From a virus: 64,000 nt of DNA. Both the position numbers and the translations under genes were made by a program. This document shows, in pieces, positions 18,612-27,263 of this stretch. The notes below the pieces were generated by a model that was not told the DNA's origin, searched no databases, and saw only the letters and a program-made list of their open reading frames with translations. The stretch lies in the IMG/VR virus record IMGVR_UViG_3300031760_000017; one strand, given 5' to 3'. Every line of letters starts with the position of its first letter. Within the stretch, counting starts at the first letter, position 1.

Positions 18612-21600
18612 TTATTTTCTTCTCATAGCACGTTGAGCCGCTAAATTAACTAAATCATTTAAAGCTTCTTCAATCTATTGTTTACTATTTACAGCAGGGA
18701 AAGATGCTGAAATCTGAACTTTTTGATCAATAACATCACTAAGAGTTGAAGCTGAATTTAAAGAAAATCTATCAGTAGAGATTTTCCCAATTTTATTTAA
18801 TAAAGATGTTCCTATATTTTTTGTAATAGATCTTAAAATAGAAACACTATTTAAAATATTTCTAGTATCTTCTGAATTTAAAACTAATTCTTTTTCATCC
18901 AATATTGCTAAACGACCTTGTTTTGAATTCCAACTTCCTGTATATCCACCTGTATCATATCTTTTTATTTTTCTATTATAAAGTCCAACAGGATCATTTA
19001 TATTCATATGAAGAACGTCATGATTATCTAAATGTCTAAGATCTCCAACTCTATTGCTATTATAATCATAGACTCCATTATCAGCTCCTCTTCCCCATCT
19101 ATAATGATTTTCTGAGCCATTAGGATAATATGTTTCAGATTCAGGCTCTTCATAAGAAACAGTATCTTGCATTCTGTTTAAAGCATCTTGATAGCGGTCA
19201 GCAGCAGACTACATTCTACTAGCATTAGCTTCTGCATTACTTGCTAAAGCATCTAAAGCCGCTTGAGCTTCATTACTATAATCCCAATCAGCATCCGCCA
19301 TTCGAATCCTCATATCTTCATAAGTCTGCGCAGTTGCCTAAGCTGATGCGGCAGCCTATTGCTAAGCTTGAACGAAATCATATAATTGAGTAACTGCATT
19401 TGCCGCAGCTGTATAAACAGAATCATAATCATAAACAAGAGCTTGAGCAGCATCTCTTAAATCTTGAATAGCAGATAATTCATCAGCCATTCTATTGATT
19501 AAATCATCATTAACTTCAATTAATCCAGTAAATTCATCTATTAAATTATCTACTCCATTTTGAACATCATTTAAATCTATACCAGCAGTATTAGCTAAAC
19601 TATCAAGTTCTTGCTAATAATTAAAAGTAGCCTCATGAATCTCTTCAAAAGCTTCTTGACAAGATGGTATAAAACCGCCCTATCCCGCAACTTTATCAGA
19701 CATCTATTGAATACCGCTATTCCATGCTGGAACTAAATCGCCCATTAGAATACCTTTTTCATCATCTGTCATCTTTTGATAATTTGCAACATCTATGTTA
19801 TAAATTGCGGCAATCTCATTAAAAGCAGATTCAGTTAGATTTTTTCTAATATCAGAATTTTGTTGAGCTTTATTATTAATATATTCTCCATATTGCTCTT
19901 TTAATAAAGCTAGCTATCTAACTCTTTCTTCTTCTGTTAAAGAAGTATCAGTAACTATATCTTTATATTTCTATTGGAAATCTCTCCAAGCAGAAAGCAT
20001 TTCCTATAAATTATTTTGATAACGCTATTTATCAAAATTATATAATTCATTTTGAGCACTAATTAATCCTTGTTCAGCATCAAAAATACCATTTTGATCA
20101 GCAACATATTGATAAGAATAGTTACCTTGTGAATCACGTTTTAATCTTAAAGAAGTTTTACTTGCTCTTATATCTTCTAAAGCAATTCGTGCTTGTTCAA
20201 TTTGAAGCATCTTCTACGCTCTATCTACATCATATTGAGTAATCTTCTATTTATTCTTTAAATTATCTAATTGCTCATCCATAACTTTCTTTAAAGCTTG
20301 TTGATGTTTCAATTGATTTGGATTATTTAATGATTTTTGGAACTTATTTTGTAAATCCTGAAGAGCAAAAGCAGCATTAATTGTATCTAAGTATTCATCC
20401 GCATTTTTATTCATTAAATCCCATTCATCACTTAAATAATCAGTACCTTTTCCGTCTGTAATTTTCTTATCTAGCTAATCAAAAATTTTATCAATAGCAT
20501 TACTGTATTTTTCACTGATTGTTTTTGCGGAAGTTTCTATTAAAGAATTGATTTCCTTAATAGCGTTTTTATAATTTTCTTCAAATTGTTTTGCCGCATT
20601 AGTATCTCCCGCTAATAAAGCTTGCTACCATTCTTGTTTCCAAAAAGCAATCTATTTTCTTAAAGCATCTATTTGATTATTTTGATTTTTTTCTAATTCA
20701 GCATAATAATTTTCCATAGCTTCATAATTTTCATCACCATAAAGCAATTTTAATAAATCCATATCATGCTAAATTAAATCATTAATAAAATCATAATCAT
20801 CTTGTTGTTTCTCAAATTGTTTAGAAATATCATCAATAGTATCTAAATAAGCTTTATCAATATCCGCAATTAAATCTTCAATATCCTACATTTGTTTCAT
20901 TAATTCGGATAAATCACTTTTTAAATCCGCCATAGCTTGTGCTTTATTATTACCATAAATTGCGGAAGTTCCTTTTTTATCTATATCTTCTATTTCTTTA
21001 CGAGTATTTAATAATTGCTATGTTAATTTTTGAACAGTACCTATTGAACCATTTATATTAAAGAAAGAATCTAAATCCATAACATTTTTAGTAGCATCTT
21101 TAAAAATCTTATCGAAATCAGTATCTTTCATAAAATCAGTTTTATTAATTACATTTCTTACAAACTAATTCCAATCTTTTGCAGCTTCGCCCATCTATAA
21201 TCGAATTTCAAGCTACATTCTAAATTTTTTAATATTAATTTCAATCTACTTTTGGGCAATCTATTCAATCTAATCTACTATATCTTCCATGCTATTTCTT
21301 AAAGAATCATAATCTTTAATTTTAGCTTGAGTATTTTTTAAATCTTCTTGAGCAGATTGCACAGCTTTATCATAAGCTGAAATTTGTTTATCTAATCCTT
21401 CTTTATAAGTTTTATCAGTAGAAGCATTATAAGATTCAATTAAACTATTCTATTCATTTATTAATCTATTAACCGCATCTTGTTTAGCTTGTAATATAGA
21501 CATATAATCATTTATATTTCCATATTCATCAAAAGTAACTCCTAATGAATTTAGAATTTGCTGTTGATTAGCTAAATCTTGTCTTTGAAGCTATTGCTTT

Positions 21601-24600: not shown

Positions 24601-27263
24601 ACGGCCTTAGCTCCATTAGAAGTAATAACAGCTGCCGCTTCTGCTGTACTCTTTCTAAATTGATAATTTAAAAGATTAGTTGCTTTTCCAACAGCCCCAA
24701 TTCCTTTAATTAACATTGGTAATGAAAAAGATAAATTTGTAACAATTTGAAGTATTCTTTGTCCAGTAGATAAATCCTGATTTTTCCAAACACTTCCTAA
24801 ATGTTGAATTTGTTGAATAGAAGACCCAATTCGAGCAAGACCTGCAGCAGCTTTTGCATATTCCTCAATTCTAACAGCTCTGTCTTTATTTGACATCTCC
24901 CCATTAAAATCGTTTTGTTTTGCATTCATTTGACCGCGCAATTTCTACAATTCAGGAACAATTTTTGGATCATTATAAACCTATTTAAAAATTTTTTCTA
25001 TTTTTGTTTTAATTTCATTACCACTAGTTTCTGTTATTTCTGCTAATTTATCAAAAAAATCTTTAAATTTTTGAAAAGTTTCTTCATTTACACTTTTAGA
25101 AAATCTTTTAGGTAAATCTTCATATAATTGACCAATCTCTTCAATAGCTTTTTGAGTTTCTTTAGAAAACTATTGATTACTAGTCATTTCATCAAAAACT
25201 TCTTTAAGATCTTTTGCTCCTAATCGTAAAGTAGTAAAAAAACTTCTTATGCCATCTTGCCCTACTTTATCAAATATATTTAAAAACTTTTCAGTTGATT
25301 GAGAAACAGACTCAGTTGATTCTTGAAATTCATCATATTCTTGCTAACATTTTTCTAGCATATTTAATATTTCATCAATTTTTTCAGGCTTTCCAACAAT
25401 ATTTTCTAATTTTGTCGTACCTAACTCTTGTCCTGAAATTCTATCTATTAACTATTCTAAAGGTTGTTTTTGTTTAACTAAAGTTTGAATCTAATTTCCA
25501 ATATTAGTAATATCATTTAATAATTTTTGTGCTCCTTGAAATTCTTCTGGAGACATCATTCTTGATAGTTCTAATAAATGTTCTCTATCTTTTAATAAGC
25601 TTTTACTTACTTCATCTAATTCAGGAATTCCTTGCCAATCTTTTGTTGCTTGTAAGGCATTATCAAATTCTCTAGCATTACTATTTGCAATCTCAAGGTT
25701 AGTAATAGTTGTATTTATTCCTTTAGCAATTTGTTCACTAAAAACAGCAACCCCAATAGCTCCAAGAGATTGTAATAATGCCTTACCTCCGCCTAAGCCA
25801 TCAATAAAGTTTGCAACAAAAACTGCAACACCCGATAATGCATCAGTTATACTCTTTATAGAATCAACATCAATTAAACTATCATATACATCTTCAACGG
25901 AAGCTTTTAATTGCTTTAAATGCGCGGCAGTTGAATCCATATATATATCTTGTTGCTTTTGTAAGGTACCTGCTGCATTTTGCGCTGTATTTAATGCTTC
26001 ATTATATTCTTCAAAATTATCAAATAAAGCAAGTAAATTATTATATTGTCTTTGACCAGCCATTGTTTGAGCTAAATAAATTTGCTGTTCACGAGTTAAA
26101 TCATCCCAACGACCGCCAATTTCTTCCATAACTTCGCCCATATCACGAAGATTTCCATTCATGTCAAGAACATTAAAACCAAGTTGTGCCATTTGACTAG
26201 AATATCTACCAAGAGTAACTCCATCTTCATCAATTCCAGCTTTAATATCACTAATACGAGCATAAACAGTTCTTAAAGCTGTACCAACACTCTAAGGAGC
26301 TTGTCTTGTTGCAGAAATAATAGTTGATAACTGTGCAGCTAATTGCTATTCACTAACACCCATTGTGGCGGCCGTACTTGCAACTTTACCCATACCTTTA
26401 CTTAATTCTTCAAGATCTGATGCGGTTGTTGCAGCAACAGCAGCTAATCTATCAATATATATCTAAGCCTAATCCGCATTAACCTTATAACCATTCCAAA
26501 CGGCAGTTAACTGTTCAGAAACGTCTGCTGTTGATTGATTTGTAACATTTGCTGTTTTTAATGTAATTGCGGTTCTAGCCTAAATTTCTTTATCTGATAA
26601 ACCCTGTTGAGCATAAATTAAAGCAGCATTAGTGTAATCTACTGTTGTAGTGCCTAGTTGTTTGGCTGCATTATTGGCTTGCTCTGCAAATCTTCCCATT
26701 TCATCAGCAGTCTTACTAGTAACGATTCTAATATCATTTAATGAAGTATCTAATGATTTAACATATCCAACTGCTTGTTGAATAGTACTAGTGAAACCAC
26801 GAAATACAGTATTAGCTAAATTATATTTTGCAACATTAACAAAAGTCTAAGCAAATTTATCAAGCACTTGATGAGTTTGCTTTAATTCTGCATTAACACT
26901 TAATACATGAGACGATAAATTTCTAAAAGCATTCTCACCAACAGCACCGCTCTTAGAAAAACTTTGATAGACTTTTTCTATTGAAGTTCCAGATTCATTT
27001 AATGACTTATTAAAACTTTCAACATTTGTAGTATTTAATTTTGCATTAAAAGCAGCTCTTAATGCTTTCTATACATTTCCAGCCTATTTCTGAATTGCTA
27101 TTAAATCGGTTTTAGCTGTATCAAAATCAGAATTATTTATTTTCATCATATCTTTTATAGTTAAATTTTGAATCTCTTTTAAAGATTTTTTTAACTAATT
27201 TAAACTCTGTTTTTGAATGTCAAAACCAATAGAATAGATAATATCTCCACCCTTTTTTGCCAT
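18612..27263 (-). CDS. tail tape measure protein, 2883 aa, dozens of in-frame TAG codons
   Basis: ATG at 27261-27263 with RBS GGAGATAAAAGG. The listed ORFs 25491, 24447, 20025 and 18675 share one frame (first-base coordinate mod 3 = 2). The TMP core is present: LAAQLSTIISATRQAP[TAG]SVGTALRTVYARI...QQIYLAQTMAGQRQYNNLLALF, plus internal hydrophobic segments. Stop is TAA at 18612-18614. Confidence 0.8.

Follow-up and report, generated by a model that had tools for sequence, protein, structure and literature searches.

The 64,000-nucleotide stretch of the IMG/VR virus record IMGVR_UViG_3300031760_000017 (the whole stretch is called the window in the following) carries on its minus strand, between positions 18,612 and 27,263, a gene for a phage tail tape measure protein (TMP) which is interrupted by 71 TAG codons. 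The locus raises the question of how these codons are read and whether a single protein of 2883 amino acids (aa) results. We are confident that this is a late structural gene of a phage with a genome of about 140 kb, in which TAG is a sense codon, glutamate (Glu, E) is the residue most likely inserted and the product is a ruler of 2883 residues. It is also probable, at a somewhat lower level of assurance, that the whole clade of such ~140-kb phages, with a TMP family of at least 120 members, uses the amber codon for glutamate by means of a dedicated Glu-like transfer RNA with the anticodon CUA (tRNA-CUA).

A preliminary description of this DNA had assumed a single TAG-punctuated frame with four long co-phased fragments and had suggested looking for TAA or TGA codons that split it. 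Read from 27263 to 18612, the minus strand holds one frame of 2884 codons, consisting of 2883 sense positions in total, the ATG included, and a terminal TAA. It contains 71 in-frame TAG and not one internal TAA or TGA, and its longest TAG-free runs (266, 177, 165 and 124 codons) share this frame, so that the earlier description stands. The plus-strand reading of 18612-27263 is dense in stops, and the remaining two minus-strand frames contain 150 and 390 TAA and TGA codons. At the off-frame TAA/TGA rate of 0.094 per codon, a run as long as the TMP gene without either codon has an ln P of about -283. An in-frame TAA is located 5 codons 5' of the ATG, and the hairpin that directly follows the stop codon looks like a terminator. 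Tandem repeats were not found in the gene. The elements of the gene are:

18612..27263, minus strand: TMP gene, 2883 codons plus TAA, 71 TAG; based on frame, profile and homologue evidence
27271..27277, minus strand: ribosome-binding site AAGGAGA, 7 nt before the ATG at 27263; strong, read directly from the sequence
18572..18607, intergenic: perfect 16-bp hairpin with T-runs on both strands, directly 3' of the TMP stop codon
25803..26801, minus strand (aa 155-487): TP901-type TMP core domain, the best conserved family part, 64-79% identity to homologues
24453..24548, minus strand (aa 906-937): hydrophobic, membrane-span-like segment (Kyte-Doolittle, window 19, maximum 2.24)
18636..19004, minus strand (aa 2754-2876): conserved C-terminal TMP module, 38% identity to Enterococcus phage VRE9_4 and 43% to Bacillus phage Tsamsa

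Judged by its sequence, the product is a genuine tail tape measure protein, as the preliminary description had it. The TMP-domain profile search proposed there gave matches far above the cut-offs for both families, TIGR01760 (tape_meas_TP901; aa 155-487, 126-132 bits, cut-off 28.8) and PF10145 (PhageMin_Tail; aa 197-403, 101-108 bits, cut-off 33.2). Tape measure families account for 14 of the 15 PHROG matches (best 1e-71), the remaining family being unannotated, and TMPs, colinear with the window protein, were the sole matches of a tblastn search against cultured phages. A megablast search of the gene against cultured phages gave zero matches, as did an IMG/VR search with the protein, whose back-translated patterns probably had glutamine (Gln, Q) at the TAG sites. 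Proline makes up 1.0% of the protein, the hydrophobic segment at aa 906-937 is its one strong segment of this kind and comes after a Gly/Ala-rich stretch, and no further Pfam or enzymatic domain was found. A single-sequence AlphaFold2 model of aa 1801-2600, made from the version with TAG as Q, is ~88% helix at low confidence (predicted local distance difference test, pLDDT, 49). Five homologues (P0009, P0010, P0011, P0032 and P0042) contain intein/Hint and homing-endonuclease Pfam domains; by these matches, inteins are inserted in some tape measure proteins of the family.

In-frame TAG codons were also found outside the TMP gene. In a gene survey of the window that counted only TAA and TGA as stops, many further genes held between 1 and 26 internal TAGs and others none. 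TAG-bearing genes encode a 1563-aa tail protein (26), proteins of 638 aa (5756-7672; 15) and 639 aa (3833-5752; 11), the endolysin (14) and a recombinase (10), and homing endonucleases, a RecJ-like gene and a RuvC-like gene likewise contain internal TAGs; the genes for gyrase, ligase, DnaB and helicases are TAG-free. TAA and TGA are retained as stops and TAG lies in frame within conserved genes, as is characteristic of codes of the type of genetic code 15. No aminoacyl-tRNA synthetase or release-factor gene was seen among the window proteins scanned.

Four TAG-containing genes (40059-40856, 42763-43452, 49147-50091 and 50902-51528, plus strand) are interspersed among the genes for RNase H, gyrB, gyrA, ligase and their neighbors. 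Three of them encode GIY-YIG homing endonucleases, one with NUMOD3; the protein of 40059-40856 had no Pfam match, and its Cys-rich sequence is our sole reason for regarding it as an HNH-type endonuclease. Since homing endonuclease genes carry TAG, these mobile elements share the recoded TAG of the phage. PDB searches with the 50088-50942 protein and the RuvC-like protein gave zero matches.

The identity of the inserted residue was deduced from codon-level alignments of window genes with the DNA of four relatives. In the TMP gene, codons opposite TAG are mostly GAA, with 34 GAA versus 9 CAA in relative L002 and 30 versus 11 in L008, and for the gene of the 1563-aa tail protein the ratios are 17 versus 7 and 16 versus 6. 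Swaps to Glu codons are 3-4 times as frequent at TAG columns as swaps to Gln codons, and of 181 genuine CAA/CAG columns 100 kept Gln and 12 changed to Glu. A likelihood calculated from the codon alignments was best for E in seven of eight comparisons (for example E -224, K -286 and Q -300). An alignment of 120 TMP sequences, in which the database had written Q for TAG, gave at the window's TAG columns E 0.30, Q 0.22 and D 0.11, compared to E 0.34, Q 0.15 and D 0.12 at true-E columns and E 0.11, Q 0.44 and D 0.04 at true-Q columns. The TAG columns therefore resemble true-E columns, which argues for TAG as Glu. Opposite the window TAGs, the standard-code TMPs of VRE9_4 and Tsamsa show E 8, D 5, A 5, T 5 and Q 0.

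Protein profiles point to the same residue. TAG was translated as either E or Q, and the bit scores were compared:

PF10145: 107.6 bits with E, 103.4 bits with Q
TIGR01760: 132.2 bits with E, 126.3 bits with Q
Glucosaminidase: 83.1 bits with E, 78.2 bits with Q
PG_binding_1: 96.9 bits with E, 94.2 bits with Q
NUMOD3: 44.6 bits with E, 42.5 bits with Q
GIY-YIG, three genes: 34.0, 33.6 and 32.6 bits with E; 33.6, 31.4 and 33.7 bits with Q

Summed over the three GIY-YIG genes, E is favored by ~1.5 bits, and the net score of non-overlapping domains is ~12 bits for E over Q. With TAG as E the TMP consists of 9.6% E and 6.3% Q, and with TAG as Q it contains 8.8% Q; the Q content of the VRE9_4 and Tsamsa TMPs is 6.4-6.6%. 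The E content falls from 7.3% in TAG-free to 5.8% in TAG-rich genes, the Q content rises from 2.8% to 4.5%, and TAG accounts for 2.2% in the latter; this composition fits glutamate but is confounded by protein type. Integrase alignments to the PDB do not discriminate E from Q, nor does the alignment of the distant TMP of phage phAss-1 (26% identity) with the family do so for the TAGs of phAss-1; a blastn search with the phAss-1 TMP matched phAss-1 itself only, hence there is no control pair from the phAss phages. In code 15, TAG aligns with glutamine in homologues; here it aligns with Glu. The TAGs in the TMP gene and the other late genes thus most likely encode glutamate, as far as can be read from these alignments. 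The preliminary description had proposed gene calling by table 15, which remains valid for TAG as a sense codon with TAA and TGA as stops; the inserted residue is probably Glu and not the Gln of that table.

A catalytic residue of the endolysin offers key evidence on how the TMP TAGs are read, since its glutamate codon is a TAG:

37098-39383, plus strand: endolysin gene, 14 in-frame TAGs; GH73 glucosaminidase, Amidase_2, two PG_binding_1 and SH3_3
37203..37205, plus strand: TAG at the GH73 catalytic glutamate, endolysin codon 36, motif LIGQMCL-x-TGYG

In GH73 FlgJ structures (AQAALETGWG) the residue opposite codon 36 is the catalytic Glu. One entry, PDB 3k3t, has Ala there, and we take it to be the Glu-to-Ala active-site mutant. 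Of 13 endolysin homologues from IMG/VR, five have TAG at this codon, six GAA and two GAG, and none has CAA or CAG. Most of the remaining TAG sites of the GH73 domain are likewise TAG, GAA or GAG in most homologues, with other codons occasionally.

No suppressor tRNA was found within the window. A public contig of 84 kb (L005), which is 100% identical to the window over 13 kb and extends upstream of it, represents the same genome, and its positions 1-8510 lie directly upstream of window position 1. The tRNA array comprises 24 genes, four of them inside the window (396-1395); its sole tRNA-CUA is located at L005 3536-3609, ~5 kb upstream of window position 1, and the array on L005 also holds tRNA-Glu(UUC) and tRNA-Gln(UUG). 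An identical tRNA-CUA occurs in related IMG/VR contigs of 140-144 kb. The tRNA has C1-G72, A73 and G2.U71 followed by three C-G pairs, and its acceptor pairs 2-71 to 5-68 are those of the phage's own tRNA-Glu; pairwise identities to the other tRNAs of the phage gave no assignment for the suppressor. Its anticodon arm, GCGGTCTCTAAAACCGC, is common to amber suppressors with varied tRNA bodies on 52 IMG/VR contigs (L009-L060) of 5-309 kb. A home-made isotype profile, which in leave-one-out assigned 161 of 216 tRNAs (75%) correctly (Glu 14/17, Gln 12/13), placed the family of this suppressor nearest to Glu or Asp with weak scores and never had Gln among the top four classes; many of the other suppressors with the GCGGTCTCTAAAACCGC arm were classified as Gln. 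In phages with Gln-like suppressors, which served as a control, TAG swapped with Q three times and with K once in one group, and with Q seven times and with E twice in another; these numbers are small.

A sigma-70-like gene lies at L005 1-523. Within one class of the suppressors with the GCGGTCTCTAAAACCGC arm, an 89-nt tRNA-CUA starting with CGCCCTAT, the few TAG substitutions observed were all to Trp codons (4/4, a tiny sample).

The length of the TMP was evaluated by a search of 5.8 billion proteins, which yielded 3034 matches at E<=1e-10. The identical 2883-aa protein is already contained in public data. The best 120 of the 3034 homologues, with identities down to 31%, have a median length of 2896 aa within a range from 2006 to 3511 aa, and 72 of these 120 measure 2800-3000 aa; more than 100 public homologues fall between 2576 and 3511 aa. 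In the 120-sequence alignment conservation is high at aa 200-500 and 1800-2600 and low at aa 600-800, 1000-1300 and 2600-2800. The total length is kept despite the divergent middle, a pattern expected of a ruler. TAG-interrupted TMPs of 3149, 3150 and 3209 aa have been described in gut phages of ~136 kb (PMC10607447), and the phAss-1 TMP, which we re-derived from its record, has 3150 aa and 110 TAGs. The TMP is long compared to typical TMPs and ordinary within its lineage, with precedents including the 3123 aa of Tsamsa, so that the adjective "exceptionally long" in the preliminary description cannot be kept.

Its estimate of a tail of about 400 nm or more holds up better. The tail of Tsamsa was measured at 440 nm, i.e. 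0.141 nm per residue. This ratio predicts ~406 nm for the phage of the window, and 0.15 nm per residue predicts ~432 nm; a tail of ~400-430 nm is a reasonable extrapolation. The assignment to jumbo or mega phages had to be abandoned. Many of the TMP homologues are located on contigs of ~125-144 kb (134-144 kb for relatives), below the jumbo threshold of >200 kb, and 139,781 bp is the length of a contig that carries the identical suppressor tRNA and an endolysin of 95% identity; judged from these contigs of relatives, the genome class is ~140 kb and not jumbo. Tsamsa itself combines its 440-nm tail with a genome of 169 kb.

Three other explanations of the locus have to be weighed against this reading. 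Under the standard code, it would be a chain of short genes or a decayed pseudogene with an accidental long frame, and with table 11 the 71 TAGs indeed leave pieces of at most 266 codons. This explanation has next to no chance of being correct: it is refuted by the lack of TAA and TGA (ln P ~ -283), by the colinear full-length homologues, by relatives that carry sense codons in place of TAG, and by a tRNA-CUA in the same genome. A better case can be made for the same TMP gene and function with TAG as glutamine (code 15), as is assumed in public gene calls, in the phAss-1 paper and, with its table 15, in the preliminary description. This is the sole amber reassignment reported in phages, and proteomics has reportedly confirmed it in crAss-like phages. 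In relatives, CAA or CAG stands opposite some TAG sites, among them endolysin codon 101, which is CAA in five homologues. An internal PG_binding repeat has FGxNT versus FGQNT, and the integrase, RecJ and SH3_3 profiles slightly prefer Q (by 0.7-1.8 bits). The single exception among the likelihood comparisons, a tail-gene pair of 94% identity, comprises four events only (3 Q, 1 Y), and the tRNA isotype was obtained with weak scores from a home-made classifier of 75% accuracy. These points weigh against glutamate. On the other side stand the excess of Glu-codon over Gln-codon swaps while true Gln columns remain Gln, the GH73 catalytic codon that is TAG, GAA or GAG and never CAA/CAG, the lack of any Q opposite TAG in the cultured-phage TMPs, the net ~12 bits of the profiles, and a Gln content which at 8.8% would exceed the 6.4-6.6% of standard-code homologues. 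Moreover, the suppressor does not resemble tRNA-Gln, in contrast to other phage tRNA-CUA, which do class as Gln and are accompanied by TAG-Q swaps. Insertion of glutamine is, on balance, unlikely.

The remaining explanation concerns the function: the protein may be a TMP-like giant and not a simple ruler, being partly folded or cleaved in a tail clearly shorter than predicted at 0.14-0.15 nm per residue, or the phage may be a myovirus. A conserved domain, and not a plain coiled coil, occupies the N-terminal 540 residues, and for the Tsamsa TMP two bands, of 280 and 100 kDa, are known. No gene for a tail tube, sheath, capsid or chaperone was seen in the 64 kb, and the usual chaperone pair is missing upstream of the TMP gene; both facts, as well as the pLDDT of 49 of the helix model and a length rule that for this TMP clade is an extrapolation giving a predicted tail only, count against our interpretation. 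Nevertheless, length is conserved in more than 100 homologues despite divergence of the middle, the Tsamsa ratio already includes the core domain, and the downstream gene order matches TMP-distal tail modules of the siphovirus type. We regard this explanation as having a slim chance and retain the full-length ruler with glutamate at TAG.

For such a ruler the following mechanism is proposed. The gpH protein of lambda and its relatives lie extended in the tail tube, limit its polymerization and are the first to exit at infection. By analogy with lambda gpH and Tsamsa, the window TMP would be extended inside the tail tube during assembly, would stop polymerization of the tube at ~400-430 nm and would leave the tube first at infection. 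It consists of an N-terminal TP901-type core, the hydrophobic segment near residue 920, a proline-poor, largely helical ruler of ~1700 residues and the conserved C-terminal module. Its gene forms a unit of its own, with ribosome-binding site and terminator-like hairpin, at the head of a leftward tail and fiber block. The 71 TAGs would be decoded by the phage tRNA-CUA, most likely as glutamate. The anticodon CUA differs from Glu CUC and Gln CUG at position 36 only, non-discriminating glutamyl-tRNA synthetase (GluRS) tolerates C and G at this position, and bacterial GatCAB selects tRNA-Gln through U1-A72. With C1-G72 instead of U1-A72, the tRNA-CUA is presumably no substrate for Glu-to-Gln transamidation; the Glu-like tRNA would be charged with Glu, presumably by the host GluRS, and would not be transamidated to Gln.

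The gene neighborhood of the TMP gene comprises the following features:

27264..27463, intergenic: divergent region of 200 bp between the TMP gene (minus strand) and the metallophosphatase gene
27464-28210, plus strand: metallophosphatase gene, divergent neighbor of the TMP gene
13604..18295, minus strand: gene of the 1563-aa tail protein, 26 TAGs, the next large gene; PHROG "tail protein and host specificity"

A leftward block begins with the TMP gene, whose position next to a divergent region had been recognized correctly in the preliminary description. Promoters are inferred in 27264..27463; a scan for sigma-70 promoters did not rise above background and detected none on the minus strand of this gap. 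The layout is repeated in L002, L007 and L008 (as a set 94%, 60% and 59% TMP identity), where metallophosphatase, gap, TMP, an open reading frame (ORF) of 54-60 aa and a tail protein of 1479-1563 aa follow each other. The contig of the fourth relative, L006 (80% TMP identity), ends 196 bases upstream of the TMP gene, and only its downstream genes were compared. Upstream of the TMP gene, neither tail-assembly chaperone genes (a pair of the G/GT type with a -1 frameshift) nor a tube gene were found in the window or in L002, L007 and L008. The absence of adjacent chaperones, already mentioned in the preliminary description, is real and conserved in relatives; the chaperones may be encoded elsewhere in the genome, beyond the 64-kb window.

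The 1563-aa tail protein is homologous to the post-TMP protein of phAss-1 and of VRE9_4, which corresponds to a distal-tail/hub-type position. Both the order of the genes that follow the TMP gene and the nearest relatives point to a long, non-contractile tail. Between the hairpin and the tail gene lies a small ORF (18432-18548, minus strand) of 38 aa under the standard code; its counterpart of 54-60 aa, with TAG readthrough, is kept at this position in four of four relatives. The two TAG-rich genes for the 639-aa and 638-aa proteins (window 3833-7672, plus strand), one of them matching PHROG "tail protein", converge on the leftward block, and the tail module seems to be split across two convergent units.

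The region 7690-12424 (minus strand) encodes a CotH-domain protein and two fiber-like genes (8913-12114). The GC content of these three genes is 33-40% compared to ~28% nearby and TAG is almost absent from them, which suggests their recent acquisition. A TAG-bearing XerC/D-like tyrosine recombinase gene (7690-8703, minus strand) adjoins the fiber-like genes. An invertible host-range cassette is not supported, as no convincing inverted repeats were found around the recombinase and the fiber block.

On the other side of the TMP gene, a Band_7/flotillin-like protein is encoded on the plus strand (28277-29851), which is conserved in relatives. The 829-aa protein of 30774-33263 (plus strand) is conserved as well, and the homologue of a relative (L008, 4884-8468 region) matches the shoulder domain of the major vault protein; a vault-like protein is unusual in a phage. 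RNA ligase, AAA_33/KTI12-like kinase and metallophosphatase genes follow consecutively at 33779-36667 (plus strand) and look like a tRNA or RNA repair module. The remainder of the window contains replication and repair genes, homing endonucleases, the endolysin, the fiber and CotH block and tRNAs.

The TMP by itself adds little, being another giant ruler, with a predicted tail of ~400 nm, from an uncultured clade of 140-kb phages. The code matters more, and an unusual gene order without adjacent chaperones is documented in addition. Borges et al. describe only TAG to Gln and TGA to Trp in phages whose code differs from that of the host. A full-text literature search for amber or TAG to glutamate returned ciliate papers only and no phage report, the literature coverage being incomplete. 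If true, this would be the first TAG to Glu reassignment outside ciliates in the searchable literature and the third kind of stop-codon recoding in phages. Code-15 gene callers would then mistranslate ~2% of the late-protein residues in phages of the TAG-as-Glu clade, and table-15 pipelines would be wrong at thousands of sites, catalytic ones included. Capture of the suppressor by host GluRS would be testable with a defined tRNA and reporter sites.

Among known systems, Bacillus phage vB_BanS-Tsamsa (gp226, a 169-kb siphovirus) shares with the window a TP901-type core and a C-terminal module (23% and 43% identity). Its TMP is likewise giant and proline-poor and provides the measured example that ties ~3000 residues to ~440 nm. 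It differs in using the standard code, in a core at aa 720-1224 and not at the N-terminus, in an unrelated middle and in having tail genes directly upstream of its TMP. The best colinear cultured match is the group of the Enterococcus phages VRE9_1-4, EF1, EF5 and H1 (2673-aa TMP, 134-142 kb). The VRE9_4 TMP matches the window TMP at aa 13-597, 1826-2528 and 2760-2876 with 24-38% identity across the three segments and ~27% overall (tblastn), and its post-TMP protein is homologous; this group uses the standard code, and structural genes precede the TMP gene on its strand.

The phAss-1 group ("Caudoviricetes code 15 clade", ~136 kb, human gut) has TAG-interrupted giant TMPs and a tRNA-CUA like the phage of the window (PMC10607447), and a homologous giant tail protein downstream of the TMP. 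The TMP identity is only 26-31%, however, and the two genes that immediately precede the TMP gene of phAss-1 on its strand are without homologue here. Its authors assigned TAG to Gln by a tRNAscan isotype call and a TerL alignment (PMC10607447). With crAss-like, Lak and other gut phages of code 15, the window shares the concentration of TAG in structural and lysis genes, many TAG-free replication genes and a phage tRNA-CUA; there TAG is read as Gln, whereas here it tracks Glu and the suppressor is not Gln-like. The codon assignment proposed here is the same as in ciliate nuclear codes, in which UAG, or UAA and UAG, are reported to encode glutamate. Those codes are eukaryotic, nuclear and genome-wide, and their origin and mechanism are unrelated to the phage case.

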